Shown: positions 1-18,832, counted from the stretch's first letter. The stretch: DNA of 32,000 nt from Pirellula staleyi DSM 6068 (GCA_000025185.1 CP001848.1:5370001-5402000), one strand, 5' to 3'. Translations and numbers: made by a program. Notes: generated by a model not told the origin, from the sequence alone.

Positions 1-1424
1 TCGTGAGGCTCGATGTGCTGTCGATATTGATGAGGTCAATCGCTTCGTTGCCGCCACCCGCGATGAGGTCGAGCGCGAGGAAGCCTTCGAACGTGGTCGT
101 CGCGACGAGACCCGTATCGGCCGTGATCTCGGTCACACCGTCACCGAGTAGTGCATCGTCGCTGATCTCGATATCGGCAGTGCTGGTGCTGCTCGAAGCA
201 TCGACCACTAGGTTGCCACCAGCGCCGTCGAGGATGAGCGTGTCGAGATCGGCGAAGCTGACGAGCGTCAGCGGCGCGCCACTCGGACCGACACCGACGT
301 TGCCACTCCCTTGACCATCGAGGACGTCGCTGAAGTAGCCGACATCAGCCGCTGTAAGGAGCTCGAGCGCGAGGCTGTTATCGCCGAGTCCGCCATCGAA
401 GTGGATCGTCACATCGGTCAGATTGCTCGCGGTGTAGTAAGCATCGGCGGCTGTATTCAAGTGCGCGCCATTGCTCACGCCACCCGACGCGAGGCTGTTG
501 TCGACCAGCGGCGCAGCGCCGTCGAAGCTCGGGAGTCCCGCTGCTGTTTCGCGGATCGTCAGCGACTCACTATCATCGCTGCCGATCACCGTGAAGCTGT
601 TGATCGTATCGGCCTGGCCACTGAACTTGCCGAGGCCGTTGACCTCGACTTCGAACACGTTCGGTGCACTCAGGAAGATCTCGATCGCGTCGGCCGCGCC
701 GTTCTGGAAACCGGCGATTCGCATGTCGAGCACGAGGTTGTAGACCGACGTCAGCGGCGTCGTTTGCACCGTTTCAATCGAGGTGTAAGCAACCCCTGCC
801 GCCGACGTGCCGAACGACCAAACGCCGCTGTAGTCGACAGCGCCGAGCGTCAATGTCGGTACACCGAGCCCCGTAATATCGAGCACTAAAACGTCGCCCG
901 CTGGCATCGTCGGATCGCCACCAAAAATGCTGATCGGCGTGCTCGCGAGACCATTGTCTTGATCGGGCCGGACGTTGAACGTATCGATCTCCGCGCCGCC
1001 GGTGAACGTCGCGCTCACCGCATCGATATCCCCTGCAAAGCTCAGCACCGCGCCACCCCCATCCGCACTCGCCGCATCAATCGTCACGCTGACGGTGGTT
1101 CCAGCGGCGAGCCGGCTTCCCGCTTCGAGCGTGGCGTTATCACCGGCGTTAATCGTGATCGAGGTCCCAGCGCTGATCGTGGCGAGGGTCGACCCTTCGA
1201 GCAAAAAGTTTTGCGAGGCTGCCGAGTCGGTCGTGGTGAGCAGCACCGACGATGCGCCGCCACTAGCGGTCAAGTTGGCGTTGATCGTCATGTCGCCACC
1301 AGCGGTCGCCGTCAGGTTCCCGACCGATGTGATCGTGCTGTTGGCGGTAAAACTCCCCGCCGAACTTCCCGTAAACAGACCCGCCGAACTAATCGCCGCA
1401 CTACTTAAAAACGTCCCACCGCTG
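1..1424. repeat. Left arm of a large inverted repeat (window-truncated); reverse complement of 15658-17081
   Basis: Position x pairs with 17082-x and I saw no indels. Track ORFs 3-314, 311-889, 471-743, 959-1408 and 975-1625 (+) have near-identical counterparts at 16768-17124, 16193-18817 (C-terminal end), 16339-16611, 15674-16123 and 14878-16107 (-). The junction was checked at nucleotide level: the shared CAGCGGTGGG ends at 1424/15658. Confidence 0.9.
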
Positions 1425-4400
1425 CTGAGCGTGACGTTGCCGCCACCCGACGACAGAATCCCTTCGGTCACCGACATGTTGCCTGTGGAGGTGATGTTCA
1501 CGCCTCCACTGGTGGTTGTGCGGGCGCCGACGGTGCCGCCACTTGCGCCACCGATTGTCAGGTCGCCAGTGTTGGTGACGAGGATGCCGCCAGTGCTGCT
1601 GCGTGCTTCGAGGTTGTTCACCTGAGTCTCGAGTGCTCCGCTCCCGCCGACACCGATGCCGCTGCTCGCCACAATTTCGAGCTGATCGCCGAGGATGTCG
1701 AGCGTCGTATCAGCCGCGTTGTCGTGGATCGCTCCCGTTGATTCGAGGCGGATATCTCCGAGTCCAGCGTTGATCACGCCGATGGGAAAATTGTCCGTGT
1801 TATCGAGGAGGCTGATGTGATCGCTGACACCACCTGCCGTCGTTGCATCGACCCGAGCTCCAGCGATGGCCGAGGGGGCATTGATGCGAAACGGTGTCGC
1901 CAGGGTTCCAATCGTGCTGCCGCTGCCGGTCACTTCAAGGACGATGATGGTGCCGCCGATATCGCGATCGGTTCCACCATCTCCCACAATGCTGCCGTTG
2001 AGCGCGAGGACGTCGAAGGTTGCTCCAGTGCCAGCTCCCACGGTGGAATTCGAAACGCTTAGGCCACCGGCGGTGTCAACGACATAGACAAAGTTGGCCA
2101 AGGTCGTATTGGTTGCGACGACCAGCGTGCCGAGGTTGACTTCCAGCCGATTGCCGACGCCGCCGATCGAACGATTGGTGGTCGAGAGGGTGACGTTGAG
2201 GGTGCCAGCCACAATGTCGGCCACCCCGGCATCGCCAGCAGCGCTGTCGAGGTTGCCGTTGTTGATCGTCATCGTGACGGTGCCGCTGCCCGCGTTCACA
2301 TTGGCGGCAGCCACATTACCACTCGACGTGGTGTTGATTGTGATCGGGGCGTTGTTGTTGGTGACATTGGTGAGCGTGACGGCGTTGGTTTCGTCGATCG
2401 TGATCGAGCCCGACGTGCTGTTGGTGGCGACGATCGTGGCGACTGTGGTATCGAGATTGATGCCAGTCGTAGCCGAGGCAATCAGGTCTTGCGTCACAAT
2501 GTCGACGCCCGTCCCCGAGGTAGTGATCGAGCCACGCGCATCGAGGGTCACGTTGCCAGCGGCGCTAGCGGTGAGGGTTGCGTTAACAGCGATGGTTTGC
2601 GAATGAATCAGCACATTGCCGGTGAAGGTCGACGCAGTGCTGACGGTGGTTGTATCGGTGCCAGCAGCCCCGTTTTCGATTTGCAGATTCACCACGTTGT
2701 GTGTGGTGGCGGTGCCGGTGCTGACAGTCACAGTGTCGTTGCCATCTACGAGCGTGGTGTCGACCGTGAGGGTGCCGACGTTCCAGACGTGCAGCTGTTC
2801 GAAGGGAACACCGCCGCTCGAGCCGGTGAGGACAATCGCCGGGATGGTGCCGGTTGCGGAATCGGTGCCGCTGCTGAGGGTGACAATGTCATTGGCCGCT
2901 GCGGTGCTGAGGGTGACACTGGCCATCGAGTGGATGTCGACCGGTTCGAGCTGCGTGAAGTTAATCACCCCTCGGCCGACGATTTCGACTCGTCCATCGT
3001 TGTCGAGTGCGCCACTGGCGACTGCATCGGGGGTGTAGATGGCCGACTGGACGTTGTCGCCATTCACACGAAGCACATCGCCGAAGGGACCAGCAACATC
3101 TTGTGTGCCACCATTGAAAAAGAGGCCTCCTGATGGAAGCGCGTGGCTGTTAGCGGTGACGATCAAGCGATCGTCGCCAGCCAGACCGTTGAAGGTGAAG
3201 TTGGGTGGATTGACGAGGATGATGGCGGGGCTCGAGCCGACCACCACTTCGAGGTTGCCACCTGCTTGCGGTGTCACGACCACCGTATCAGCGCCTGCTG
3301 TGCCGTTGATGACAGGCTGGCTGTAGAGCACCACATCGTTTCCGTCGCCACCGGTGTAGCTGATGTAGAGCTTCTGACCACCGACGACAAACTCCGAACC
3401 TTCCGCGAGATCGAACGTGTTGGTGGGGTCGCGGAAAACGCCACTCACAGCGGCGCCGCCGGTGTTGCTGATGATCAGGAACGACTGCAGTGTCGCGGGG
3501 GTGATGGTGCCGGTGAGGTTGACGTTGAGCACCGGACGCTGACCGGCGCTGCCGAGTGTCAAACCGGGGACGATCAGCTGATCGTAGTCGGTGCCGGCCA
3601 CTGGTGCAGGCACACCGCTGAGGTTGATGTCGAGTGTGGCGTCGTCTTGCAGCAGCGCGGCGCCGGTTGCCAGGCTTTCGGTTCCCGCGAGAGTGAGGCC
3701 AACGCCCAGCACGCCCCCCGCTGCGACGGTGACAGCCCCGGTGATGGTGCCAGTGCCGGCGAGGATGCTCCCCGAGAGGACGCTCACTGCGCCTGAACCG
3801 GTGGCCGATCCGCTGCTGTTATTGGCCAGCAGCGTGCCGTCGGCGATGCTGAATCCGGCACTGTTGGTGCTCGCACCTTCGAGAATCAGCGTGCCGTCGC
3901 CACTCTTGGTGATCGCGCCGGTCCCTGTACCCGCGAGCTGCGAAGCCGATTGGAACGTGATCGACTGCGAGGCGTCGACCACGATCGAGCGTGGACCTGA
4001 GCCGGTGGTTGTTACCACGGCATCGGTGACGGTGGTGTTGCCACTCGCTGGATTCTGAATCGTTCCCGACGCAAAGTTAATGTTGAACGGAGTGGCGCTG
4101 GAGCGATCGATGGTGGTGGCTCGCAGCGTGCCGCCACTGATATTCAGCGTGGGGTTGTTGCCGCCACCATCGGCCAGGGTGCTATTCACCAGCAGCGAGC
4201 CTCCATTGAGATTCAGCGTGCCGTTGACAGTTCCTGCAGTTCCGGCATCGGTTCGCCGGGCAATGACCACGTTATTGGTATCGACGGTGCCGAGATTCAT
4301 GGTGAACGTGCCGGCGACAGTTCCGGTGGAGACGTTCGGTTTCGAGCCGACAATCAAGCTCGAGAGAAATGCGTTGAGGGTGCTTCCCGTAGCGAGAAAC

Positions 4401-7333
4401 GTTCCATTCACAGAAGTGCCGGAGGCCGAGGTGGCGTGAGCACCAAGCCGAAGTTCGGTCCGATTGCCACTGGTGCCGAGGTTGAGCGTGCTGCCAGATG
4501 CGACAAACGAAACTTGCGCCGAGCCTTTATCGCCAGCCACCACAAATAGCGGCGTGTTGATGGTGTTGCTCGCGCCGAGTCGGAGATTGTTCGTCCCGGC
4601 CAAGCCGACGGTCGTCGAGTTGGAGATCACAATCGAAGTCGACGCGGTGATGTTGTTCGATGCCGAGAGGGTGACCGTTGCTTGGGGATAAAGTTGGTTT
4701 GACCCCGTTGCCGAAGTGGAGGTGACGATGCCCAGTTCAGCCACATTGATGCTGACGCTCGTCGCGCCGGTGAAGTCGACCGTTTGAGCAAACGCCACTC
4801 CGGTGCCGGTGCCAAAATCGCCTGTACGACGACCGATATAAAGATTGCTGCCACTTCCCGAGCCGAGTGTGACCGTGCCCCCGTTCACATCGAGTGTGCC
4901 GAGGCCACCGTTGAGACCCACCACGGTGGTGCCGGTCACGTTCAGCGAGCCACCATTCATCACCAGCGAGCCTGTCGTGTTGGTTGGGGCAGTGCTTTGC
5001 GTGGTCGTTGATGCCGAAGAGTTCGGATTGGCGATGGCCAGTGTCACGGCATTCACTGTGCCGTTGCCAAACGTGAGCGAAGCTTGCGAGGCACCAGTGC
5101 CATTGAAGTGGCGCGCGATTCGGAGCTCATCGAGATTGGCATTGAAAGTTGCCCCAGCCAGGTTCATCACCCCCGAGATCACCGAACCGGTGCCAACGTT
5201 GTTGTCGGCGAGGAAAAGGTCGGCAACTGTTGCCGCGCCCCCTGCGCCATAGAGGTTCAGCGTACCACCGGCCCCAATCGTTACCTGGCCATTCGCCTTG
5301 CGACCACCCACGGTCATCACCGGGGTGTTGATCGTGGTGGTGCCCGCTCCGAGAGAGAGCAAATTCTGCTCTGCATTATTGAAGGGGGTAGCGGAATCCC
5401 CCAGCAGCACCGAAGTGGTGGCGGTGATGTTCTTGGTGACGTTATCAGGAAGTAGCAGTGTGCCAGAAGTTCCATCACCGGCCGCACCAGTTACGACCCC
5501 CAGGGCCATCGAAGCCACACTGATGGTGACCGATGAAGCGGCAGTGAGATTCACGGTCCCATCGACCGATGTGCCGCCGCTCGAGCGTCCGATGAAGAAG
5601 TTGGTAGAGGCTCCCGCGCCGATCGACACTGCTCCGCCGTTGACCAGCAGACTGCCGGTGCCCGTTCCCGACGAGGCGTCATTGAAACCAACACGCAGGT
5701 TGTCGACACTCAGTCCGCTGGCGATCGTGACACTACCGACGTCGATATTCACGCTGCCAGTGCCAGCGTCATTCCCCAGTGTTCCCGCTGACACCGTCCC
5801 ATTTTGGGTGACACGAAACGTGCCCCCTCCAACACGCAGGATCGAGTTGCCGGTGAGCGATCCGCCGCGCACTTCGAGCGTGCCAGCGCTCACGGTTGTG
5901 GTGCCGGTGTAGCTGTTGCTGCCAGTGAGAGCAAAAGTGTTCGAGCCGAGCTTCGTGAGGTTCCCATCGCCACTGATATCGCCGTGAAAGACCGCGTCGG
6001 GAGTGTTGACCCCGGTGGTGAGTGTTGCTCCTGTAGCAAGCACCATCAGGCTGTTGTCGACACCCGTGACGTTCCCCACTTGCTCGCTTGTGGCGACGGT
6101 GAGTGTCGCGCCGACGCCGTTGACGTTCACCTGACTTGTGTTCGGAACGGCACTGCCGCCCGTCACCGTCAGCACGCCGCTGGCGATGTCGACCGAACCG
6201 GTAAACGTGTTGCTGCCGCTGATCGTGACCCCTTGCGAGCCGGTCTTCTCGAGGGTGGCGAGGTTGCCGCTGATCGCGCCACTGAAAATGGTTCCCGCAA
6301 CGTTTTCCCCCACCAGATCGACCGACTTAGCTGCCGCAATGGTCCCCGAAAACGTGGTGAGTGGGGCCGGAATGTTCGTGGTGCCGATGGTGGTGACATT
6401 TCCGCCACTCATCCCAGCGCCGACTACGATGTTGTTGCTGATGGTCCCTCCCACCGAGGCGAGCAGCGCAGTGGGATTGGCGTCGGGAGTGGAAGCATCG
6501 TTGAGTGTGATGGTGCGGGCTGCTGTGCTGCCGAGGGCGTTCACGTGACCAAGCACGATCGTGCCGTGGTTGATGGTGGTCGTGCCGAGGTAGGCCGAGT
6601 TATCCCCCGACATCGTCAGCATGCCAGCCCCGGTCTTCAGCAGGACACCAGTTCCGCTGATCGTTCCGGCGTACGACGTGCTGGTTGCGTCCCCTCCGGA
6701 AGTGAACGTGAAACTGCCCAGGTTCACGTTGCCGCCCGTCCCAGCAAGCGAGTCGAAGGTGGCATTGGCTGTCAGCAGCGCCGTGGCACCTGCTTGAAGC
6801 ACGAGATCAGCCGAGTGATCGGCATTGGCGGTGAGTGTCGCGCCCGATTCGACCGTGATTTGATCACTCGCGCCGGCATCGCCGTGGACGACAATCGGAA
6901 CCCCAATGAGCGTGCTCAGAGAGGTGTCGAGTTCGACCGAGTCATCGCCAGCGCCAGCGCTGAGGGTCACGAGGTTGATGGTGGAAACGGGAATCCCAAC
7001 TTGATTGGTGCCGTTGAAGGTCCAGCCCATTTGCAGCGTGGGATTCAGCAGCGAAGTGCTGGTGATTTGCAGCATCGTTCCGCCACTGACAAGCTCGAGC
7101 GTGTAGCTGTCGTCGGTCCCCGATTGGTCGGTGATGCTGAGCGCTCCGAGCCCGTCGAGCGTGACGTCGCTGGTCAGCACGCGTCGCTCTTCCAGTCCTT
7201 CCAGAAACATGCGGCGACGAACACGTGGCGACAGCCGACGCACTGCTGGAGACACTGCTGAGCGAGCATTTTTCGTTGCAGTAGCCGACCCAATTAGCGA
7301 CGCCAAACGACCAAGAATGCCACGCAAGACCAT
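1..7333 (-). CDS. Giant secreted/surface repeat protein, paralog A (PATR-type beta-strand repeats plus beta-helix-like body); 5' end complete, 3' end beyond the left window edge (>2,444 codons in window)
   Basis: Not in the ORF track because there is no in-window stop. Manual reverse-complement translation starts at ATG 7333-7331, with GGAG ~10 nt upstream and an in-frame TGA at 7363-7361. It gives MVLRGILGRLASLIGSATATKNARSAVSPAVRRLSPRVRRRMFLEGLEERRVLTSDVTLDG... The same frame was re-checked without stops at 4018-3320 (...GDGTLILEGASTNSAGFSIADGTLLANN...GTDYDQLIVPGLTLG...KLYISYTGGDGNDVVLYSQP), 3320-3000, 1810-1740 and 1633-1381. Every minus-strand ORF the track lists inside 1-7333 is in another frame. 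From ~3326 down to 1 the protein is colinear with gene B residues ~1205-2393. Confidence 0.85.
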   Translation of the reverse strand, partial: MVLRGILGRLASLIGSATATKNARSAVSPAVRRLSPRVRRRMFLEGLEERRVLTSDVTLDGLGALSITDQSGTDDSYTLELVSGGTMLQITSTSLLNPTLQMGWTFNGTNQVGIPVSTINLVTLSAGAGDDSVELDTSLSTLIGVPIVVHGDAGASDQITVESGATLTANADHSADLVLQAGATALLTANATFDSLAGTGGNVNLGSFTFTSGGDATSTSYAGTISGTGVLLKTGAGMLTMSGDNSAYLGTTTINHGTIVLGHVNALGSTAARTITLNDASTPDANPTALLASVGGTISNNIVVGAGMSGGNVTTIGTTNIPAPLTTFSGTIAAAKSVDLVGENVAGTIFSGAISGNLATLEKTGSQGVTISGSNTFTGSVDIASGVLTVTGGSAVPNTSQVNVNGVGATLTVATSEQVGNVTGVDNSLMVLATGATLTTGVNTPDAVFHGDISGDGNLTKLGSNTFALTGSNSYTGTTTVSAGTLEVRGGSLTGNSILRVGGGTFRVTQNGTVSAGTLGNDAGTGSVNIDVGSVTIASGLSVDNLRVGFNDASSGTGTGSLLVNGGAVSIGAGASTNFFIGRSSGGTSVDGTVNLTAASSVTISVASMALGVVTGAAGDGTSGTLLLPDNVTKNITATTSVLLGDSATPFNNAEQNLLSLGAGTTTINTPVMTVGGRKANGQVTIGAGGTLNLYGAGGAATVADLFLADNNVGTGSVISGVMNLAGATFNANLDELRIARHFNGTGASQASLTFGNGTVNAVTLAIANPNSSASTTTQSTAPTNTTGSLVMNGGSLNVTGTTVVGLNGGLGTLDVNGGTVTLGSGSGSNLYIGRRTGDFGTGTGVAFAQTVDFTGATSVSINVAELGIVTSTSATGSNQLYPQATVTLSASNNITASTSIVISNSTTVGLAGTNNLRLGASNTINTPLFVVAGDKGSAQVSFVASGSTLNLGTSGNRTELRLGAHATSASGTSVNGTFLATGSTLNAFLSSLIVGSKPNVSTGTVAGTFTMNLGTVDTNNVVIARRTDAGTAGTVNGTLNLNGGSLLVNSTLADGGGNNPTLNISGGTLRATTIDRSSATPFNINFASGTIQNPASGNTTVTDAVVTTTGSGPRSIVVDASQSITFQSASQLAGTGTGAITKSGDGTLILEGASTNSAGFSIADGTLLANNSSGSATGSGAVSVLSGSILAGTGTITGAVTVAAGGVLGVGLTLAGTESLATGAALLQDDATLDINLSGVPAPVAGTDYDQLIVPGLTLGSAGQRPVLNVNLTGTITPATLQSFLIISNTGGAAVSGVFRDPTNTFDLAEGSEFVVGGQKLYISYTGGDGNDVVLYSQPVINGTAGADTVVVTPQAGGNLEVVVGSSPAIILVNPPNFTFNGLAGDDRLIVTANSHALPSGGLFFNGGTQDVAGPFGDVLRVNGDNVQSAIYTPDAVASGALDNDGRVEIVGRGVINFTQLEPVDIHSMASVTLSTAAANDIVTLSSGTDSATGTIPAIVLTGSSGGVPFEQLHVWNVGTLTVDTTLVDGNDTVTVSTGTATTHNVVNLQIENGAAGTDTTTVSTASTFTGNVLIHSQTIAVNATLTASAAGNVTLDARGSITTSGTGVDIVTQDLIASATTGINLDTTVATIVATNSTSGSITIDETNAVTLTNVTNNNAPITINTTSSGNVAAANVNAGSGTVTMTINNGNLDSAAGDAGVADIVAGTLNVTLSTTNRSIGGVGNRLEVNLGTLVVATNTTLANFVYVVDTAGGLSVSNSTVGAGTGATFDVLALNGSIVGDGGTDRDIGGTIIVLEVTGSGSTIGTLATPFRINAPSAIAGARVDATTAGGVSDHISLLDNTDNFPIGVINAGLGDIRLESTGAIHDNAADTTLDILGDQLEIVASSGIGVGGSGALETQVNNLEARSSTGGILVTNTGDLTIGGASGGTVGARTTTSGGVNITSTGNMSVTEGILSSGGGNVTLSSGGTFLSSAAISSAGLFTGSSAGSFTANSTITSVGNLTATAGGDMTINANLTASGGASSVLLTTTDSAASQNFLLEGSTLATISAGTSITINAGDNATLEAGSRLAAGTTVSVTIDAASADGGGAVLSFAGDIDAVSATFTGGAEIDTFNVRPDQDNGLASTPISIFGGDPTMPAGDVLVLDITGLGVPTLTLGAVDYSGVWSFGTSAAGVAYTSIETVQTTPLTSVYNLVLDMRIAGFQNGAADAIEIFLSAPNVFEVEVNGLGKFSGQADTINSFTVIGSDDSESLTIRETAAGLPSFDGAAPLVDNSLASGGVSNGAHLNTAADAYYTASNLTDVTIHFDGGLGDNSLALELLTAADVGYFSDVLDGQGSGNVGVGPSGAPLTLVSFADLDTLILDGAGGNLVVDASSSTSTADIEISDDALLGDGVTEITADTGLVATTTFEGFLALDLIAGGGNEAIDLINIDSTSSLT

Positions 7334-7894
7334 GGGGGAGGCTCCACAAGAAATCGCACATCAATCGCTCATCACAGCAGACAGATGTACATTGGCATGC
7401 ACAGAAGCATCGCGGTCGGAGTGGCACTTGAAACGCCACATCTTAGTGTTCTGTGTCAGCATCAGCCCCGTTAAGCTGGGAGAGAGCGTGCTGCGCGCAA
7501 TGTATACCTTGGGGCTAGACTAACTGCGTGGTCTAGCACCTTCAAGTGGCAACTTTGCTACAACCGGTACCTTCGGCAGTCCTTGGCAGTAGCAGGCTCA
7601 TACTCCGCTCGAGGGGCGGAATGCCGCAGTCGATCGGCTGCGGGAAATGAACCCACCTTACCAGGAAAAACCTCCGCTCTTGGCCCCAGTAGCGGGGGCG
7701 AGCTGGCTACCGCTGAGTAGCTGGGCTGCGTTGTGATGGCGGAATGCCGCCGCTAAAAAATCCAGGCTGTTTGGAAAAGATTTTCTGGCTCGCAAGGCCC
7801 AAGAGCGCACGAAAAAGCCCCGCCAGCGGCACGCTTGACATGCCAGATGACGAGGCTCTTGAGCTATCGAGAGTGATGTCGCGCTAACGACTCA

Positions 7895-7915
7895 CTGGCC
7901 GACGTGCGCGGCCAG
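7895..7915 (-). terminator. Candidate hairpin downstream of the propeller gene (CTGGCCG-N7-CGGCCAG)
   Basis: 7-bp GC-rich inverted repeat 23 nt past the stop at 7938. A second small hairpin (GACCT-TTAG-AGGTC) follows the stop directly. There is no U-run, so this is weak as an intrinsic terminator. Confidence 0.25.
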
Positions 7916-7937
7916 CGTACGACGACCTCTAAAGGTC

Positions 7938-9236: not shown

Positions 9237-9846
9237 ACGAGAGTTCCTGAAGCGTGGGGAATGTCGGCGGGAGGGGGGCGGGCAGGACACTGCCTAACCG
9301 TTAAGACCCTAGTAAACACCCATATCGAGCGCAAATCAATCGCGGGAAGGGGCCGAGAGGAGCTTGCAGGTCCCTTGCCGAGAGAATCGGCGATCCAGCG
9401 TGCACGTGCGTTTCAGCCGCAGGCCAGACCGTCCAAAAGAACTGCCGGCACCCCTTCAGTGGACTGTGCTGCCGAGCACAAAGAGGACATTCTTAAAAAT
9501 CTACCCGTTTGGTAGCTGAAACCTCTGGACCCCTGGCTTGGCGCAATTATGCTACGAACCGTTCCCGGCATAGTGAATTGGGGTGGATAACACGCGCGCT
9601 GAGGTCGCCAGAAAGCACCTCGTGAGCTGCGCGACAGACCATTCGGGTCCCTCAGGCAACGCTCGCTGCTGCCGCGACAAATCGACACGCAACTTTGTGG
9701 CGCTACTACCTATTTTCCATTAACGCTGGCTGATTCTCGATCCTGCTCATTAGAAAACCATAAGTCTTAAGATCTCCCCATATCTTATTACTTATAACCC
9801 AAGTCATCACCACCGACTACTCCTCCATACTCCTCATCCTCTCAAG

Positions 9847-9879
9847 TTCTGATAATTGAATTCCAACTTAATATCAGAA
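9847..9879. promoter_or_regulatory. Inverted repeat TTCTGATA-N17-TATCAGAA in the leader of giant gene B
   Basis: Perfect 8-bp arms at 9847-9854 and 9872-9879, 23 nt upstream of ATG 9902. It sits inside an AT-rich, G-depleted stretch. Its function (operator or 5'-UTR hairpin) is not established. Confidence 0.25.
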
Positions 9880-9901
9880 TCCCTGCTGGAGCATCGCTGT
9901 T

Positions 9902-12900
9902 ATGTCCATCCGCTCGAATCGCTCTTCGTCTACTGACTACAGCACTGCTTCCAAGTCGACGAATAAGTCCCAGCGAGAAGCTCATGCCAAGTCGCGCATG
10001 CAGTCTCCTAAGCGACGCGCCTTTCGCCGGATGCTGGTGGAATCGCTCGAACAGCGTCAGGTGATGGCCACGCTGGTGTGGGATGGTGGTGGTGATGCGA
10101 TCAATTTCGCCGACTCTGCTAACTGGGATCTCTTGGGAGTCGATCAGGCTCCTACCTCGGGAGATACGCTCGTCTTCGGCGGCGCTGCTGCCGGTACCTT
10201 GATCAACAACACCACCCCTGGCAACACCTACGCGATGCAGTTCAACGCACCTGGTTATGTGATCACCGGCAATAGCATCACGCTCAACCAGGCGGTATCC
10301 GACCTCGCCACGACGAGCATGGTTCCCAATGGCTTTGCGATTCGCAGCAGCGCGGGAGTGAACAACACCGTCAACACGCCGCTGATCCTGTCGGGTTCCA
10401 ACACCATCGATGTCGCCGCATCGACAGGATTTGCTACCGGAGGTGCGATCAGCGGTGGTGGCTCGCTCACCAAAACCAGCAACGGTCAGTACACCCTCCG
10501 CGGGGCCAATACCTTCGGTGGTGGCGTGGTCCATACTGCCGGAGCGATTCGCGCCGAGCACGCCCAAGCCTTCGGCACCGGCACGATCTCCGTGACTGGC
10601 ACCGCCGTTACGCTGCTGTGGTGGAACACTCCGTATCAGCGCGTGGAAAACAACTGGATTCTCAGCGGAACCGGCGGCTTTGATAGCAAAACCGCGATCT
10701 ACGCCGATGGCGCTGGCGGTGGCTCTCCCGACATCACTTTGGCCGGCACGATCACCCTGGTCGGGAGCGGCAGTATCGGCGGCAATAGCGCCAACAACAT
10801 CACGGTGACCGGCCAAATCACCGGCGCAGGGAGCCTCGTTAAAGGTGGCTCGCGCGGCGACGAGAATAGCACCCTCACGCTGATGAACCCCGCCAACAAC
10901 TACACGGGTGGAACCACCATCAATCGCGGCACCCTGAAAGCTGGCGCAAACGAAGTGATTCCGCATGCCGCTGGCAATCAGGTGGTGACGGTCGGTGCCG
11001 GAACGGCGCTCGATCTGAGTGTCTTCAGCGAAACGATCAACTCGCTCGCAGGCACCGGAACGGTGCGCCGGACAGGCGGCGTGATTCCGCTCACCAACTT
11101 CACCGGCGACGCTGACTCCGATATTAGTCTCGCCAAGACCTACACCCATAAGCTCGACTTCAACGCTGGCGCAACAGTCGCCACCGTTAACGGAGTGGCG
11201 TTCGACGCTGGTGTGCAAGTCGGCCCCAACTACACCCTCAACGCTACGGCCGCTGCTGCTGGAGTTCCCACCGGAGTCACACCACCTACCGATGGCACCA
11301 GCGTGCTGCTCGAAGATTTCTACTACAACGCCAATCCCACCCAGGTGACACTCACAGGATTGACGCCAGGGACCATGTATGAGGTTCGCCTCTACCACCG
11401 CCGCTGGCAACCTTATACCAACCGCACCCAGCGGTTTGTGTTTGATGAAGATGGAGCGGGTGTTGCTTCGACCATCCTCTATCACGATGTTGATGCCAGC
11501 GCGACCCCCAATTATATGACCTATCGGTACATTGCGACCGGTAGTGCAATGACCATTAATGTTCATCTCGCCAACAATACTTCTTCGACCTACCATATTT
11601 ATGGTTTAACGAACGAAGTGGTCTCAGGATCTCTCACCACACCTACCCTTCTAGTTTCCGGTACCACTGACAATAGTTTTAATGGAACCCTGGATGGCTA
11701 CGGCACCATTCAGAAGTCGGGCAGCAATACTCAAGGCTTCGGCGGTACAGGCTCCTTTGCAGGCAATCTTAATGTCACGCAAGGGAGTATTAGCGTTGGC
11801 TCAGCAACCGGCCTAGCAAGCGCCAATGTCAACGTCAGCTCGGGCGCCAATGTGCGACTGAATTATGGCAGCGGCAATGGTGTGATCGCCAATAACTTCA
11901 CGCTCCAAGGTCTGGGAACCGCTGGCGATGGCAAAAGCACCATCTATGGCGATGGCGGTGGAAGCGGACTGGCCGAGTATGTTTTGTCCGGGACGATCAC
12001 CCTGGGTAGCAACGCCTCGATCGGTGGCAACGACCAGAACCACATCACGGTGACTGGTCAGGTGACCGGCGCAGGGGGGCTCTTCAAAGGTCAAACACGC
12101 AGCGACGAGGCGAGCACCCTCACGCTGACCAATCCGGCCAACAACTATCAAGGTGGTACGGTCATCAATCGCGGCCGTTTGCGCACCGGCGCAAACGAAG
12201 TGATTCCGCACACTTTGGCCAGCAACTCGCTCGTCGTTGGAGCCGGAACCAGTGTCGACTTCGGCATTTACACCGAAACGATCGGCAGCCTCTCGGGTTC
12301 GGGCAACCTGATGCGGAGTGGTTCGGTTCTCGCACCGGTCCTGTTCGACTCCGATGCCACCAGCGGTATTTCGAGCAGCAAAACCTACACCCACGCCCTC
12401 GATTTCAATGCCGGTGCAAGCGTTGCTACGATCAACGGTGTCAACTTCACCAATGCAGGCAATTCCGGAGGGAACTGGACACTCACCGGAGCGGGCTTTG
12501 CCTTCAGCAACACCAGCACTGGCATCCTTTCCCCAACCGATGGGACTCACACGCTGCTGGAAGATTTCCTCTACGCTGGCAATCCTGCAGTTTTGACTCT
12601 TTCGGGCCTTGTCCCTGGAACGACTTACGAAACCCGTCTTTACAATCGACGCTGGGGCGCCGACGACCGCACGAACGTCCTCATCTTCGACGAAGATGGT
12701 GCTGGTCCTGCAAGCACCACCATTCGCTTCAACGAAGATGCCAGCGCCACGCCGAACTATTTGACCTACCGATTTGTGGCCACCAGTTCGAGCGTTGCCA
12801 TTTCATTCCGGCCCAACAACAGCACGACGGCGTCGTACCATTTCTACGGCGTCACCAACGAAGTGGTAGCTGCCCCAGCGACTCCGCAGCTCAGCATCGT

Positions 12901-15900
12901 GCAGACAACCAACGGCCTCTTCTCGGGCGCGATTTCCGGGGTCGGCAGCGTGGAGAAGCAAGGGGCTGCAAGCCTGACGCTCAGCGGCGCGAGCACCTAC
13001 AGCGGTGGCACCACGATCACAGGCGGCATTCTGCTGGCGAGCAATGCCAGCGGATCGGCTACCGGCACTGGTCCGGTGCAAGGGAGTGGCGCAAGCACCC
13101 TGGGTGGAACCGGTAGTATCACCGGCGCAGTAACGCTGGCGGCGACATCGACGCTTGCCCCGGGAGCCAGCCCCGAAACGCTTGCGACCGGCAATCTGGC
13201 CCTCGGCAACAACACCGCGCTCGCGATCGAAATCGGCGGAACAGCTCCCGGCAATGGCGTTACCGGCTATGACCAGGTGAATGTCACCGGCACCGTTTCG
13301 ATTGGAAGCGGCGTAGCACTCAATCTAACGCAGCTGAGTGGCTTCACAGTCAATCCAGCGGCGCTGCAAACCTTCACGATCGTCAGCAACGATGGATCCG
13401 ACGCCGTCACGGGAACCTTCGCCGGACTTGCCGAAGGAGCAGCCATTTCGTATGCCGGTGGAACACTCTACATCAGCTACGCTGGTGGCGATGGCAACGA
13501 TATCGTGCTGTCGAGTCAGCCACTCCTCGCGGGGACTAGCTTAGCGGATGAATTTGTCATCACCGGCGATGGCACCACCTACACGGTAACACGCACCAAC
13601 TCGAGTGGCGTCGTCACTGCTGTCTACACCAATCCCGTCGCTCAGATCCTCAATATCCTGGGAGCAGGTGGCGACGATACGCTGATCGTTCGCTCGAGCG
13701 GCGCCAGCACCGATCCGATTCCCACGGGCGGAATTGTGTTCGACGGTCAAGCTCAAACGATGAGCCTGTTTGGCGACACGCTGCGGGTTGAAGGCGCCAG
13801 CTCGCAAACCGCGACTTATGTTCCCAGCAGCACCACGTTTGGCTCGGGAACCGTCACCATCGCGGGCATCGGAGTGATTACGTTCGTCGGTCTCGAACCG
13901 CTCGATTTGAGCGGCTTTGGTGTCGCGAATGTCAACTTCCCCAATGCCAACGAAATCATCAGCATCAACACCGGTTTTGATTCTGCTACTGGAACGATTC
14001 CGGCGCTCGTCGTGAGTGGCAGCAGCGGCGGTGTCTCGTTCGAGCAAGTTCATCTCTCGGGCAATACGGTGGTGAATATCGACACCGTCGCCAGCGGCGT
14101 CGATGGAGCCGATCTCATCACCATCGCCGGCGCAGCGAATGCCCACGGCAACACCAACCTCAACATCAACGCTGGAGCTGGCGCCGATATCATCGACGTC
14201 AACGGCCTGATGTCGGTCGTGGGAGCCACCAGCAGCATCGCGCTCACGTCGGGAGGCTCGATCAACGTCAACAGCACCATCACCGCTGGCTTGTCGGTGA
14301 ATCTGTCGGCCGGCACAGGATCGATCACCGATGGCAACGGCGCAACCGCCAACGTCGTCACTACGGTTGCTGGTGGCAGCCTCGTCGCGAGCGCTGCCCA
14401 AGGGATCAACCTCGACACGAGTGTCGTGAACCTCACTGCGACCAATAGCACCTCGGGCACCGTGAATATCGACGACGCCGATGGGCTGAATATCCAGAGC
14501 GTCACCAACAACAACGCCCCGGTCGTAATCACCGCTGCTGGCATCGGCAACGTGGTTGTCGAGAACCTCAATGCAGGGACCGGCGCAGTAACGATCCTCG
14601 TCAACAACGGCAACATCGAGAGTGGTGCTGCTGATGGTGGGGCCGCCGACATCGTCGGTGGCGTCACCACCCTCACCCTCACACAAACCAGTCGGCGCAT
14701 CGGCAACGGAGCCGCCAATCGACTGGAAATCAACGCCACGCAGCTGATCGTCACCGGCGGCGCTGCTGGCACGCAAACCACCCCCAATCAGGTCCACATC
14801 GTCGATACTGCCGGCGGCCTGAGCATCTCGGATTCGTCGATCGGAGCTGCCGACAACACCGTCTTCGATCTGCTGGTTCAAAACGGCAGCCTCGTCGGCG
14901 ATGGCGAAACTGACCGCGACATCGGCGCTGTCACCATCATCCTCGAAGTCACCGGCGCCACGAGCACCATCGGCGCCCTGACTGCTGGCCTGCGAATCAA
15001 TGCGGCCACAACAACCCCGGGTGGACGTGTCGACGCCAAGACCGCCGGAACCGCTGCGAGCAACATCACACTTGTCGACACGACCGACAATTTTCCCATC
15101 GGCGTGATCGATGCAGGCCTCGGCGATGTGAGACTCGTTACGCTTAATTCCGGTGCCGTCATCACCGACAACGCCAACGATGCCCTGGTCGACATCATCG
15201 CGAACCGATTGTGGTTCGAGAGTATTGCGGGGGTCGGTGTTGGATCGCTGGGCAATCTCGAAACCCAAGTGAACAACCTCGAAGCGACGACAGGGACCGG
15301 CGGCATTGGACTCGCCAACACGGGCAATGTCACGCTGGGTGGTGCGACCGCAACCGTCACTGGCGTTCGCGCCACAACAGGCGGCAGCATTAACGTTTCC
15401 TCGACCGGCAACATCATCATCTCGGAGACGGTGACAACGGCGGGAACCAACAACAATATCACTCTCACCGCAGCTGGCTCGCTAACGAGCAATGCGGTCA
15501 TCAGCTCCACGGGGCTGCTCGGGGTCACTGCCAATGGTGGCACCCTCAGCACCACCGCAGCGATGACCTCCAGCGGTACTCTCACCGCATTTTCGACCGG
15601 CAACATGTCGATCGGTGGCACCACCACTTCCACGGCAGGCGATGTCTCGCTGACCTCCAGCGGTGGGACGTTTTTAAGTAGTGCGGCGATTAGTTCGGCG
15701 GGTCTGTTTACGGGAAGTTCGGCGGGGAGTTTTACCGCCAACAGCACGATCACGTCGGTCGGGAACCTGACGGCGACCGCTGGTGGCGACATGACGATCA
15801 ACGCCAACCTGACCGCTAGTGGCGGCGCATCGTCGGTGCTCCTCACCACGACCGACTCGGCAGCCTCCCAGAACTTTTTGCTCGAAGGGTCGACCCTCGC

Positions 15901-18832
15901 CACGATCAGCGCCGGGACCTCGATCACGATTAACGCCGGCGATAACGCCACGCTCGAAGCGGGAAGCCGGCTCGCCGCTGGAACCACCGTCAGCGTGACG
16001 ATTGATGCGGCGAGTGCGGATGTGGGTGGCGCGACGCTGAGCTTTGCAGGGGATATCGACGCGGTGAGCGCGACGTTCACCGGCGGCGCGGAGATCGATA
16101 CGTTCAACGTCCGGCCCGATCAAGACAATGGTCTCGCGAGCACACCGATCAGCATTTTTGGTGGCGATCCGACGATGCCTGCGGGCGATCTTTTAGTGCT
16201 CGATATCACGGGACTCGGCGTGCCGACATTGACGCTCGGCGCAGTCAACTACAGCGGCGTTTGGTCGTTCGGCGCGTCGGCGGCAGGGGTTGCGTATAGC
16301 TCGATTGAAACGGTGCAAACGACGCCGCTGACGTCGGTCTACAACCTCGTGCTCGACATGCGAATCGCCGGCTTCCAGAACGGCGCGGCCGACGCGATCG
16401 AGATCTTCCTGAGTGCACCGAACGTGTTCGAAGTCGAGGTGAATGGCCTCGGCAAGTTCAGTGGCCAGGCCGATACGATCAACAGCTTCACGGTGATCGG
16501 TAGCAGCGATAGTGAGTCGCTGACGATTCGCGAAACAGCAGCGGGACTCCCGAGCTTCGACGGCGCTGCGCCGCTGGTCGACAACAGCCTCGCGTCGGGT
16601 GGTGTGAGCAATGGCGCGCACTTGAATATAGCCGCCGATGCTTACTACACCGCGAGCAATCTGACCGATGTGACGATCCACTTCGATGGCGGACTCGGCG
16701 ATAACAGCCTCGCGCTCGAGCTCCTTACTGCCGCTGATGTCGGTTACTTCAGCGACGTCCTCGATGGTCAAGGAAGTGGCAACGTCGGTGTGGGGCCGAG
16801 TGGCGCGCCGCTGACCCTCGTCAGCTTCGCCGACCTCGACACGCTCATCCTCGACGGCGCTGGTGGCAACCTCGTCGTCGATGCTTCGAGCAGCACGAGC
16901 ACTGCCGATATCGAGATCAGCGACGATGGTGCAGCAGCTGATGGCGTGACCGAGATCACCGCCGATACGGGTCTCGTCGCGACGACCACCTTCGAAGGTT
17001 TCCTCGCGCTCGACCTCATCGCGGGTGGCGGCAACGAAGCGATTGATCTGGTGAACATCGACAGCACGTCGAGCCTCACGAGCATCGATATCGTGGCTGG
17101 TTCGTCGCTCGCGGCGACCGACAACAGCGCTCACACGGTTCGCATCCACGCGATCAAGAGTGGCGTGCCCGTGACGGTAACGGGCGACATCGGGGTCGAC
17201 ACGTTCCAGGTGTTTGACAGCGGGAATTCCGCATCGAACATCGCCTCGACTCTGTCGTTCAATGGCGTTGCCGGGGACGACGACTCGCTGATCGTCGTCG
17301 ACAGCGGAAGTGTGTCGGCCGACTCGGTCGTCATCACGCGCACCACGATCGAAGGGCTCACGATCGCAACGGGAACCGACATCACGTTCACGAGCATCGA
17401 CGATCTCGATGTGACGACTTCGGGCGGCGCCGATACGATCCGCGTCAACATGACCGAAGCGGCGAATGACCTCGACACGGCTGTTGTCAGTGGCGCGAAC
17501 TCGAACGATCAGTTCTACGTCAACGCGGCCGATTTCCTCGCGCGACTCACGCTCAACGGTGGTCTTGGCGACGACACGTTCGGCGGCACACCATCGAGCA
17601 CCGCGCCCGGCTATCTGCTGAGCGCCAGTGAACTCGACGGCGTCGACGACATGATTCGCCCGAGTCTCACAACCCCCTTCTTCATCAACGGCAACGATCC
17701 CTCGGTGCTCCCAGGCGATGTGCTGAACATCGATGTCTCGGCGCTCGGTGGTGGACTTGCCGCGACGAGCCCCGTGCTCGTCAGCAGCGGACAAGTCCTC
17801 AGCTCGACGCACGCCACCGTCACCTTCACGACGATCGAAGATCTCAATCTGGCCGACGATGGCGAGATGACGAGCGCCACGGTGAGTGACATCTACATCC
17901 GCGGCACCAATGGCAATGACACGATTCAGTTCGCTCGCGCCAACACCACACTCGAGCCCAATCGGACTCGCGTGCAGATCGGCTCGAGCTACACCTACCA
18001 CAACGTGCCGGGCAAGACGCTCGTCTACGGCCGCGGCGGCAACGACATCATCAACCAATCGAACCTGCAGATTCCCGCGGAATTCTACGGCGAAGCAGGG
18101 GATGACTTCCTCACCGGCAGCTTCAATAACGACCTCTTGGTCGGTGGTCTCGGTAACGACCGCATCAACGCCAGCAGCGGTAACAACATCGTCTGGGGCG
18201 ATGATGCTCCAACGAGCGACGAGCTCAATCCGCACGAGCTCAACATCGGTGGCAACGATACGCTGAGCGCGCTCGGCGGCAACGACATCTTCTACGCCGG
18301 TGGCGGCAACGATAGTGTGAGCCCAGGTGCGGGTGACGACTGGATCCACGGTGGCTACGGCAACGATCAGCTGAGTGGCAGCTCGGGCAACGACCGCATT
18401 TACGGCGCTCAAGGGAACGACACGATCAGCGGCGATGTCGGCGACGACTTCCTGAGCGGCGGCGATGGCGACGATCGGCTGTACGGCCGTGACGGCAACG
18501 ATGTGCTGATTGGCGGTGACGGCGTTGATCTGGTCGACGGCGGCAACGGCAACGACCTGGTGCTCGCGGCGATCACCACTTACCAAGGGACGAGCGATAC
18601 GGCGACGAGCAACACGTATAACAGCGCGGTCGACGCCGCGATGCTCGCGCTGCTGGTGGCCTGGAACAGCGGCGGCCCTGTCGCCGCGAATCTCACCCAC
18701 ACCGACGACTTCGACCGCGACACCGTTTACGGCGGCAGCGGCAACGATCTCTTCGGCACCCACACCAATGCCGACCCCCTCACCAGCGACATCCGCGGCG
18801 ACTTCAACAACTCCCAAGACACCAGCCTCTAA
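9902..18832 (+). CDS. Giant secreted/surface repeat protein, paralog B (2,976 aa): PATR-type repeats, duplicated 415-aa module, beta-helix-like body, C-terminal RTX-type Ca-binding repeats
   Basis: Single ORF from ATG 9902 (GGAG 11-14 nt upstream) to TAA 18830-18832. The N-terminus is KRRAFRRMLVESLEQRQVMA with no hydrophobic Sec h-region. It has G.G.L.K.G...L.L...N.Y.GGT.I..G.L units (autotransporter-associated beta-strand repeat type). The signature GYDQVNVTGTV...YISYAGGDGNDIVLS lies at 13264-13513. The body is T/S/G/N/A/V-rich, and a GGxGxD block lies at 18029-18565. I found no Cys residue by eye in the whole translation. Confidence 0.92.
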   Translation: MSIRSNRSSSTDYSTASKSTNKSQREAHAKSRMQSPKRRAFRRMLVESLEQRQVMATLVWDGGGDAINFADSANWDLLGVDQAPTSGDTLVFGGAAAGTLINNTTPGNTYAMQFNAPGYVITGNSITLNQAVSDLATTSMVPNGFAIRSSAGVNNTVNTPLILSGSNTIDVAASTGFATGGAISGGGSLTKTSNGQYTLRGANTFGGGVVHTAGAIRAEHAQAFGTGTISVTGTAVTLLWWNTPYQRVENNWILSGTGGFDSKTAIYADGAGGGSPDITLAGTITLVGSGSIGGNSANNITVTGQITGAGSLVKGGSRGDENSTLTLMNPANNYTGGTTINRGTLKAGANEVIPHAAGNQVVTVGAGTALDLSVFSETINSLAGTGTVRRTGGVIPLTNFTGDADSDISLAKTYTHKLDFNAGATVATVNGVAFDAGVQVGPNYTLNATAAAAGVPTGVTPPTDGTSVLLEDFYYNANPTQVTLTGLTPGTMYEVRLYHRRWQPYTNRTQRFVFDEDGAGVASTILYHDVDASATPNYMTYRYIATGSAMTINVHLANNTSSTYHIYGLTNEVVSGSLTTPTLLVSGTTDNSFNGTLDGYGTIQKSGSNTQGFGGTGSFAGNLNVTQGSISVGSATGLASANVNVSSGANVRLNYGSGNGVIANNFTLQGLGTAGDGKSTIYGDGGGSGLAEYVLSGTITLGSNASIGGNDQNHITVTGQVTGAGGLFKGQTRSDEASTLTLTNPANNYQGGTVINRGRLRTGANEVIPHTLASNSLVVGAGTSVDFGIYTETIGSLSGSGNLMRSGSVLAPVLFDSDATSGISSSKTYTHALDFNAGASVATINGVNFTNAGNSGGNWTLTGAGFAFSNTSTGILSPTDGTHTLLEDFLYAGNPAVLTLSGLVPGTTYETRLYNRRWGADDRTNVLIFDEDGAGPASTTIRFNEDASATPNYLTYRFVATSSSVAISFRPNNSTTASYHFYGVTNEVVAAPATPQLSIVQTTNGLFSGAISGVGSVEKQGAASLTLSGASTYSGGTTITGGILLASNASGSATGTGPVQGSGASTLGGTGSITGAVTLAATSTLAPGASPETLATGNLALGNNTALAIEIGGTAPGNGVTGYDQVNVTGTVSIGSGVALNLTQLSGFTVNPAALQTFTIVSNDGSDAVTGTFAGLAEGAAISYAGGTLYISYAGGDGNDIVLSSQPLLAGTSLADEFVITGDGTTYTVTRTNSSGVVTAVYTNPVAQILNILGAGGDDTLIVRSSGASTDPIPTGGIVFDGQAQTMSLFGDTLRVEGASSQTATYVPSSTTFGSGTVTIAGIGVITFVGLEPLDLSGFGVANVNFPNANEIISINTGFDSATGTIPALVVSGSSGGVSFEQVHLSGNTVVNIDTVASGVDGADLITIAGAANAHGNTNLNINAGAGADIIDVNGLMSVVGATSSIALTSGGSINVNSTITAGLSVNLSAGTGSITDGNGATANVVTTVAGGSLVASAAQGINLDTSVVNLTATNSTSGTVNIDDADGLNIQSVTNNNAPVVITAAGIGNVVVENLNAGTGAVTILVNNGNIESGAADGGAADIVGGVTTLTLTQTSRRIGNGAANRLEINATQLIVTGGAAGTQTTPNQVHIVDTAGGLSISDSSIGAADNTVFDLLVQNGSLVGDGETDRDIGAVTIILEVTGATSTIGALTAGLRINAATTTPGGRVDAKTAGTAASNITLVDTTDNFPIGVIDAGLGDVRLVTLNSGAVITDNANDALVDIIANRLWFESIAGVGVGSLGNLETQVNNLEATTGTGGIGLANTGNVTLGGATATVTGVRATTGGSINVSSTGNIIISETVTTAGTNNNITLTAAGSLTSNAVISSTGLLGVTANGGTLSTTAAMTSSGTLTAFSTGNMSIGGTTTSTAGDVSLTSSGGTFLSSAAISSAGLFTGSSAGSFTANSTITSVGNLTATAGGDMTINANLTASGGASSVLLTTTDSAASQNFLLEGSTLATISAGTSITINAGDNATLEAGSRLAAGTTVSVTIDAASADVGGATLSFAGDIDAVSATFTGGAEIDTFNVRPDQDNGLASTPISIFGGDPTMPAGDLLVLDITGLGVPTLTLGAVNYSGVWSFGASAAGVAYSSIETVQTTPLTSVYNLVLDMRIAGFQNGAADAIEIFLSAPNVFEVEVNGLGKFSGQADTINSFTVIGSSDSESLTIRETAAGLPSFDGAAPLVDNSLASGGVSNGAHLNIAADAYYTASNLTDVTIHFDGGLGDNSLALELLTAADVGYFSDVLDGQGSGNVGVGPSGAPLTLVSFADLDTLILDGAGGNLVVDASSSTSTADIEISDDGAAADGVTEITADTGLVATTTFEGFLALDLIAGGGNEAIDLVNIDSTSSLTSIDIVAGSSLAATDNSAHTVRIHAIKSGVPVTVTGDIGVDTFQVFDSGNSASNIASTLSFNGVAGDDDSLIVVDSGSVSADSVVITRTTIEGLTIATGTDITFTSIDDLDVTTSGGADTIRVNMTEAANDLDTAVVSGANSNDQFYVNAADFLARLTLNGGLGDDTFGGTPSSTAPGYLLSASELDGVDDMIRPSLTTPFFINGNDPSVLPGDVLNIDVSALGGGLAATSPVLVSSGQVLSSTHATVTFTTIEDLNLADDGEMTSATVSDIYIRGTNGNDTIQFARANTTLEPNRTRVQIGSSYTYHNVPGKTLVYGRGGNDIINQSNLQIPAEFYGEAGDDFLTGSFNNDLLVGGLGNDRINASSGNNIVWGDDAPTSDELNPHELNIGGNDTLSALGGNDIFYAGGGNDSVSPGAGDDWIHGGYGNDQLSGSSGNDRIYGAQGNDTISGDVGDDFLSGGDGDDRLYGRDGNDVLIGGDGVDLVDGGNGNDLVLAAITTYQGTSDTATSNTYNSAVDAAMLALLVAWNSGGPVAANLTHTDDFDRDTVYGGSGNDLFGTHTNADPLTSDIRGDFNNSQDTSL
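10685..12868 (+). repeat. Intragenic tandem duplication in gene B: two ~415-aa modules with a 1,245-nt period
   Basis: SKTAIYADG...NPANNYTGGTTINRGTLKAGANEVIPH...KTYTHKLDFNAG...YHIYGLTNEVV (10685-11623) parallels GKSTIYGDG...NPANNYQGGTVINRGRLRTGANEVIPH...KTYTHALDFNAG...YHFYGVTNEVV (11930-12868). Anchor residues are offset by exactly 1,245 nt. Nucleotide identity is roughly 75-80% in the stretch I compared (10871-10980 vs 12117-12230). Confidence 0.85.
15658..17081. repeat. Right arm of the large inverted repeat, inside gene B
   Basis: See the left arm. It encodes B residues ~1920-2393 (GGTFLSSAAISSAGLFTG ... GGGNEAIDLVNIDSTSSLT) in the gene B frame. The left arm encodes the same segment in the gene A frame. 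Confidence 0.9.
18029..18565 (+). repeat. RTX / hemolysin-type calcium-binding nonapeptide repeat block (coding, C-terminus of gene B)
   Basis: More than a dozen consecutive GGxGxD-type units: GRGGNDIIN, GEAGDDFLTG, GGLGNDRINA, GGNDTLSALGGNDIFYAGGGNDSVSPGAGDDWIHGGYGNDQLSGSSGNDRIYGAQGNDTISGDVGDDFLSGGDGDDRLYGRDGNDVLIGGDGVDLVDGGNGNDLVL. Confidence 0.85.

Follow-up and report, generated by a model that had tools for sequence, protein, structure and literature searches.

The 1.4 kb inverted repeat carried by two head-to-head giant genes of Pirellula staleyi DSM 6068, here called A and B, consists of two copies of a constant C-terminal module of ~950 aa that is common to at least six giant genes of this organism. 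We consider it likely that the constant tail evolves in concert across the whole family, through patchy gene conversion combined with purifying selection, and that the A/B pair carries in addition a private extension of 328 nt. The window analysed was a stretch of 32,000 nt of the P. staleyi DSM 6068 chromosome (CP001848.1:5370001-5402000), and all positions are counted from its first nucleotide (Table 1).

A repeat search of the window identified the two arms, each 1424 nt in length, as 95% complementary and gap-free. Direct counting gave 65 mismatches in 1424 nt (95.4% identity), of which 47 fall at third codon positions, and the longest perfect runs between the arms reach 99 nt at most. Position x of one arm pairs with position 17082-x of the other, the codon phases of A and B map onto each other, and the arms encode the same 474 residues in the real reading frames of both genes, with 13 differences. 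The first-pass annotation of this DNA had described a gap-free match between the reverse complement of 1-1424 and 15658-17081, lying in the coding frame of both genes and encoding a segment of about 475 aa, and our counts agree with that description. Its local estimates were also close to our recounts: 5 of 150 differing residues for 975-1424 (5 of 150 on recount), about 17 of 192 for 311-889 (19 of 193), and roughly 2-10 mismatches per 60 nt in 1-300 (2-11).

The edge of the block at 1424/15658 is very sharp, as first reported: 96 perfectly matching nucleotides are followed by a complete absence of ungapped similarity. Just upstream of this edge lie a 1-codon indel and an extra beta-helix unit of ~64 aa in B. 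A candidate 64-aa tandem duplication in B beside the boundary was rejected, the signal being merely low-complexity beta-helix similarity. At the other end of the repeat, the decay of identity towards the window edge that had been proposed is slight and owes most to a single 10-nt patch (144-153); the gradient is not robust once this patch is counted as a single event. Identity between A and B is still 92% in the final 100 nt at the left window edge. The length of 1424 nt is therefore a lower bound, and the right end of the B arm (17081) is set only by the left edge of the window.

Table 1. Features of the A/B locus and of the repeat family within the window (positions in nt; strand +, - or not applicable)
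Feature	Position	Strand	Details
Gene A, partial	1..7333	-	Giant PATR / autotransporter-associated beta-strand repeat protein; open frame 7360->1; 3' end beyond left edge
Inverted-repeat arm, gene A	1..1424	-	A aa 1980-2453
Constant C-terminal module, visible part of A copy	1..1096	-	8/363 differences from P0126, 10/363 from P0125
A/B-private segment, A copy	1097..1424	-	~110 aa; 7 differences from B copy, all synonymous (2.1%)
Segment between arms	1425..15657	.	14,233 nt; A head, propeller gene, intergenic 7334-7937 and 9291-9901, B head
PQQ_2/BamB-like beta-propeller gene	7938..9290	-	Pfam PQQ_2 E=4e-42
Gene B	9902..18832	+	ORF, 2976 aa; PATR repeats and C-terminal RTX repeats
Inverted-repeat arm, gene B	15658..17081	+	B aa 1920-2393
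A/B-private segment, B copy	15658..15985	+	Other four members only 25-48% identical here
Constant C-terminal module, B copy	15986..18829	+	B aa 2029-2976, ~948 aa; ~97-100% protein identity with P0123-P0126
RTX calcium-binding nonapeptide repeats	18218..18562	+	Pfam HemolysinCabind E=2e-18; inside constant module of B

The start of gene A is likely to be the ATG at 7333, with an alternative ATG at 7210; residue 1 of A in our numbering is the codon that opens the frame at 7360. The N-terminus of A bears a 'Planctomycete extracellular'-like motif (RRMFLEGLEERRVL), and planctomycete-type motifs with a weak Planc_extracel match are found at the N-termini of both A and B (…FLEGLEERRVL and …LVESLEQRQVM). 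Both proteins are members of the PATR family, with PF12951 scores of 60 bits for A (E=2e-16) and 52.6 bits for B against a cut-off of 27, and TIGR02601 scores of 57.6 and 47.6 against a cut-off of 19.85. The translation of B is identical to ADB18769.1 / WP_012913028.1. A stretch of B (aa 2773-2887) matches NF033943 at 75 bits against a cut-off of 1000, a match that is limited to the nonapeptide repeats; B showed no full-length match to an RTX toxin or T1SS substrate family, and there are no T1SS genes within the window. A single-sequence AlphaFold model of the block was all-beta but unusable (pLDDT 42).

Within the head of B, a unit of ~415 aa is duplicated in tandem (10358-11581 and 11621-12826; aa 153-560 and 574-975). 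The two copies share 48.5% amino acid identity, and the best-kept 228 nt (10738-10965 versus 11983-12210) are 75% identical. Third-position G+C dips to 0.48 at 11402-11701, where 41 of 100 codons end in T, a stretch that runs from the last part of the first repeat copy into the beginning of the second. The lag-415 signal is absent in A, and a direct repeat in A (1147 and 2392) proved to be a chance match.

The beta-propeller gene lies upstream of A in the same orientation and is outside the repeat family. It is a conserved gene, found with 54-73% identity in 49 planctomycete genomes, and no A/B homologues or conserved neighbours were found beside any of 52 propeller-gene loci, three of which were only 21-27% identical. 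It appears either that the giant genes came to lie around a conserved propeller gene or that the region has been rearranged. It should be noted that contig CAMDKL010000294.1, titled 'Pirellula staleyi DSM 6068 isolate ZH-13nov19-202', encodes a propeller gene only 60% identical to that of the window; given that B is an exact DSM 6068 protein, the DSM 6068 label of this metagenome-assembled genome looks wrong. The other genes of the window are typical of planctomycetes (DUF1501, PSCyt2/PSD1, sulfatase, GFO/IDH/MocA and MsrA). A PPC-domain ORF and a DUF1501 ORF (26700-27599 and 27478-28815, both on the minus strand) overlap by 122 nt as predicted, and the start of the PPC ORF has probably been placed too far upstream. 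Scans of the window for Rfam families and tRNAs gave no match, and promoter and terminator scans were empty or uninformative.

The first-pass annotation explained the repeat by recent gene conversion between A and B, and pointed to synonymous divergence along the paralog alignment as a means of checking this. In the codon alignment, the block (474 codons) shows 95.4% nucleotide and 97.3% amino acid identity, with a dS of 0.143 and a dN of 0.017 (dN/dS ~0.12). The colinear flank (A aa 1145-1979 and B aa 1012-1919; 816 columns) shows 57.6% nucleotide and 48.7% amino acid identity, a dS of 1.30 and a dN of 0.48, in agreement with the earlier description of genes that remain colinear beyond the block with about half of their residues matching. 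The heads (912 columns) are more divergent, with 43.6% nucleotide and ~32% amino acid identity, a dS of 1.92 and a dN of 0.88, and the N-terminal ~1000 aa of A and B are about 25-32% identical.

Synonymous divergence in the block is thus far below that of the flank, and falls approximately nine-fold at a sharp boundary, the signature of a gene-conversion tract. Constraint alone is insufficient to produce such a drop, and the block must therefore have been overwritten by recombination; since the flank is colinear with saturated dS, the overwriting took place inside pre-existing paralogs. The block is homogenised, beyond mere conservation, and both copies have been under purifying selection since. 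The part of the earlier proposal that invoked homogenisation by recombination consequently stands, but the event was not simply a recent exchange between A and B, because at least four more giant genes in this genome carry the same module. The A-B divergence of 4.6% means that the last exchange relevant to this pair was not very recent.

The wider family was identified by an exhaustive HMMER scan of 1.84 billion representative proteins, with B aa 1920-2690 as the query. The scan returned B itself (P0122, 2976 aa, ADB18769) and four giant proteins at 85-90% overall identity: P0123 (4109 aa, ADB16019), P0124 (3688 aa, ADB17731), P0125 (4503 aa, ADB16950) and P0126 (3688 aa, ADB17518). All are encoded on the 6,196,199-bp chromosome of P. 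staleyi DSM 6068. PATR and RTX repeats are present in each of these four, and their heads carry two PA14 and three C-type lectin domains (P0123), LamG (P0124), PA14/GLEYA (P0125) and F5/8 type C (P0126); in the heads of A and B, PATR beta-helix was the only feature recognised. The family members are probably adhesin-like, cell-surface proteins, and we infer that they reside at the surface and that the tail serves all of them in export or anchoring. Protein accession numbers are normally assigned in gene order. As those of the family are hundreds to thousands apart, we infer that the genes are dispersed along the chromosome. We found no account of this P. staleyi family in the literature searched. 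A word-indexed protein search returned one 43% match for the A block and generic PATR matches for B aa 1012-1918, and P. staleyi proteins seem to be absent from that index. Peptides of the block likewise had no close match in collections of genomic and metagenomic contigs.

Identity within the family has a nested, 3'-anchored arrangement: each pair of members is ~95-100% identical from its breakpoint to the C-terminus. P0125 and P0126 are ~100% identical across their last ~1670 aa; this identity extends to P0123 for the C-terminal ~1490 aa, to P0124 for the C-terminal ~1200 aa, and to B from residue ~2029 ('TVSVTIDAASAD…', nt 15986) through to its last residue. The five complete tails differ from one another at only 1-17 positions in 583 aa, the RTX block included, down to the C-terminus. 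Because the visible part of A keeps to the family sequence up to the window edge and the five complete tails are near-identical, the tail of A beyond the window is almost certainly like that of B, as predicted from these alignments. Only A and B share the 328 nt at the start of the block, an indication of an exchange or a common origin specific to this pair. Upstream of the module, a segment of B (aa ~1085-1330; 13157-13900) is 53-82% identical to P0124 and only 28-57% identical to A, which suggests older exchanges between B and this distant family member.

Comparable tails occur in Anatilimnocola, Gimesia and several metagenome-assembled genomes, in the same position and with the same architecture, but at only 38-45% identity. 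Tails within P. staleyi are 97-100% identical, compared with 38-45% in these planctomycetes, all of them more distant relatives, and the near-identity in P. staleyi may thus reflect intragenomic homogenisation. The tail module appears to be an old conserved domain set that evolves in concert within P. staleyi. No second set of near-identical tails was seen among 150 representative matches, a result that is weakened by repeat collapse in metagenome-assembled genomes.

A six-way protein comparison was possible for B aa 2031-2393, a stretch of 363 residues that can be seen in every member. Over this stretch B is identical to P0123 (0/363 differences) and differs from P0124 at 2 of 363 residues and from A at 13 of 363, while the closest relative of A is P0126, followed by P0125 (Table 1). 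Within the family-shared part of the block, A and B are each closer to another member than to one another. Nine of the 13 differences between A and B are two-state variants, with the A form in P0125 and P0126 and the B form in P0123 and P0124. At 144-153 / 16929-16938, eight mismatches are clustered within 10 nt, and A reads ALLG where B reads GAAA. This patch, which counts among the nine, is a two-haplotype polymorphism with the A form in P0125 and P0126 and the B form in P0123 and P0124; a local burst of mutation was rejected as its origin. Mismatches between A and B are sparser in the private segment (7/328, 2.1%) than in the family-shared part (58/1096, 5.3%; p = 0.015), which is consistent with the shared part having received variants from other copies.

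The five complete tails (B aa 2031-2976) contain 22 informative amino acid sites, which define six splits and are incompatible in 113 of 231 site pairs. Along the sequence these splits form spatial blocks, {P0125,P0126} followed by {B,P0126} and then {B,P0125}, and P0124 is a mosaic of B-type and P0125/6-type variants. Concerted evolution is expected to leave such a mosaic, which we observed at the protein level. At divergence of no more than 3%, repeated conversion over short tracts among the copies would account best for the pattern.

Base composition also distinguishes the module from its surroundings. Third-position G+C in B is 0.78 in the module (15658-18829) and 0.81 in the last 583 codons, against 0.69 in the rest of the gene (9902-15657; p = 1.6e-7), and ranges from 0.63 to 0.68 in the other genes of the window. 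The homogenised module of B is richer in G-ending codons. The raised third-position G+C of the module is compatible with GC-biased gene conversion.

We propose that each family member joins a different head to a common tail of ~950 aa, comprising an all-beta region, the RTX repeats and the C-terminus, and that the tails would be kept near-identical by repeated, patchy, non-reciprocal homologous recombination among the copies, together with purifying selection. A and B being head-to-head neighbours, their module copies form an inverted repeat. Heteroduplex extension would be expected to stop at the sharp upstream edge, where heterology (an indel and unrelated sequence) begins. By analogy with tuf genes and kan cassettes in Salmonella, a RecA-type pathway may be responsible. 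A reciprocal crossover in the arms would lead to in-frame inversion of 1425-15657, as an occasional by-product of the same recombination.

For the other four members, the case for concerted evolution was built from protein sequences. Nested, 3'-anchored identity could also be the outcome of serial partial duplication, and what opposes this counter-view as the sole process is only the mosaic of 22 amino acid sites. In its full form, this alternative holds that the 3' part was recently copied several times and fused to new heads at different breakpoints, so that the similarity is residual and there is no ongoing conversion. The different upstream breakpoint of each pair and the sharp boundary at 15658, adjoining an indel, would both be natural consequences of such a history. 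However, A and B are colinear upstream with saturated dS, and the block was therefore overwritten in paralogs that already existed; furthermore, six incompatible splits in spatial blocks at no more than 3% divergence are hard to obtain without recombination, and P0124 is a mosaic of B-type and P0125/6-type variants. We regard serial duplication as an unlikely explanation of the family.

The first-pass annotation also proposed that the arms, having undergone recent conversion specific to A and B, act as a recombinase-independent switch that swaps two different tails and generates chimeric giant surface proteins, a reading that we find very doubtful. The structural part of this proposal survives, in that the arms do form an in-frame, indel-free substrate with perfect runs of up to 99 nt, the private segment has just 2.1% mismatches, and inversion of 1425-15657 is mechanically possible. 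Pfam and/or NCBIfam scans found no recombinase domains in the 16 predicted gene products of the window, which, for the main ORFs, bears out the earlier statement that the window has no dedicated recombinase. The products of inversion would be an A-head/B-tail and a B-head/A-tail protein. Sequence divergence is known to depress homologous recombination through mismatch-repair barriers, and the 4.6% divergence of the arms, with perfect runs of 99 nt or less, should make inversion infrequent. Occasional inversion is plausible, because conversion between inverted tuf genes or kan cassettes in Salmonella, which is RecA- and RecB-dependent, brings inversion in 8-25% of events (PMC8262849).

The premise of two different tails, in contrast, is very probably wrong. 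Near-identity of the five complete tails extends to the very end of the protein, RTX block included, and A matches the family wherever it is visible, so the putative chimeras would be near-copies of the parents, differing from them by a handful of residues. In addition, B equals P0123 in the shared part and is 13 of 363 residues away from A, which is itself nearer to P0126. An exchange of heads and tails would very probably proceed without meaningful chimeras, and the idea of a diversity generator is unsupported, as it rested on the out-of-window tail of A being different from the RTX-bearing tail of B. With complete tails that differ at 1-17 of 583 residues and A following the family to the edge, inversion at this locus would very probably not bring the change of product that characterizes an invertible switch of the Campylobacter fetus sap type. 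Nor does it resemble a site-specific inverton or shufflon, as the repeat is not a short site but takes up at least 1.4 kb of coding DNA. It is tempting to speculate that the constant tail could be a recombination 'docking platform' for the grafting of lectin-type heads, with the nested breakpoints as scars, and that A/B inversion re-pairs heads with functionally different stalk variants (e.g. ALLG/GAAA), but we think this improbable.

Strong purifying selection on an essential domain and an assembly artefact duplicating one sequence deserve almost no credence and are refuted: the dN/dS of ~0.12 does indicate constraint, but selection at the protein level cannot give a ~9-fold synonymous drop at a sharp edge, 65 differences with 47 at third positions identify two real, separately evolving copies, and the source is a finished chromosome.

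Family-wide concerted evolution of the tail has precedents. Concerted evolution of 3' segments in Helicobacter pylori adhesin paralogs (babA/babB, sabA/sabB and hop pairs) was reportedly described by Pride and Blaser in 2002. Like the P. staleyi family, the H. pylori adhesins occupy separate loci and have divergent ligand-binding parts, with 3' segments that are near-identical within a genome by RecA-type gene conversion. The P. staleyi genes differ in their size (9-13.5 kb), in the length of the module (~2.8 kb or more), in the number of members (six or more) and in belonging to a free-living planctomycete; moreover, the family, known here from its sequences alone, shows no sign of phase or antigenic variation, or of chimeras that alter binding.

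In C. fetus, the sap locus is said to invert by homologous recombination within a conserved block, in work attributed to Dworkin and Blaser (1997) and Tu and colleagues (2001). The likeness is one of geometry only, namely surface-protein paralogs with opposed, in-frame conserved blocks that flank an invertible segment. The sap block is at the 5' end, and a single promoter on the invertible segment picks the variable gene that is expressed, whereas the P. staleyi block is a 3' tail, each gene has its own upstream intergenic region, and inversion would be near-neutral for the product. Co-evolution of tufA and tufB in Salmonella has reportedly been recognized since a study by Hughes in 2000. The tuf genes are likewise inverted paralogous sequences on one chromosome that are homogenised, with inversion as a by-product (Brandis et al., PMC8262849), but they are whole, essential, functionally identical genes 750 kb apart, whereas in P. 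staleyi only the tail is involved and the arms are 14 kb apart.

Rhs and CdiA polymorphic toxins with orphan C-terminal cassettes are also large secreted proteins, with modules that are joined anew by homologous recombination within a conserved region (Koskiniemi et al. 2014, PMC3967940). Their polarity is reversed, with a constant body, variable toxic tips and immunity genes, compared with the variable heads and constant tail of P. staleyi, and no toxin/immunity pair was seen. The rgpA/kgp/hagA group of Porphyromonas gingivalis is similarly reported to comprise several large surface-protein genes with near-identical C-terminal regions and domain rearrangement, in other domain families and another organism (PMC5266723).

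The P. staleyi family is a further example of a known phenomenon, concerted evolution, and involves no new mechanism. It accounts for the striking 1.4-kb inverted repeat found in this public reference genome, and carries a practical consequence, in that six or more ~3-kb repeats that are 95-100% identical can cause short-read assemblies to collapse or break and can give rise to inversions. Planctomycetes are rich in giant genes (PMC5177795), and in P. staleyi a repertoire of giant, probably carbohydrate-binding surface proteins appears to be built on a single co-evolving C-terminal module. The constant tail represents a candidate common export or anchoring module, which would offer one target for antibodies or knock-outs and a handle on the planctomycete cell surface.
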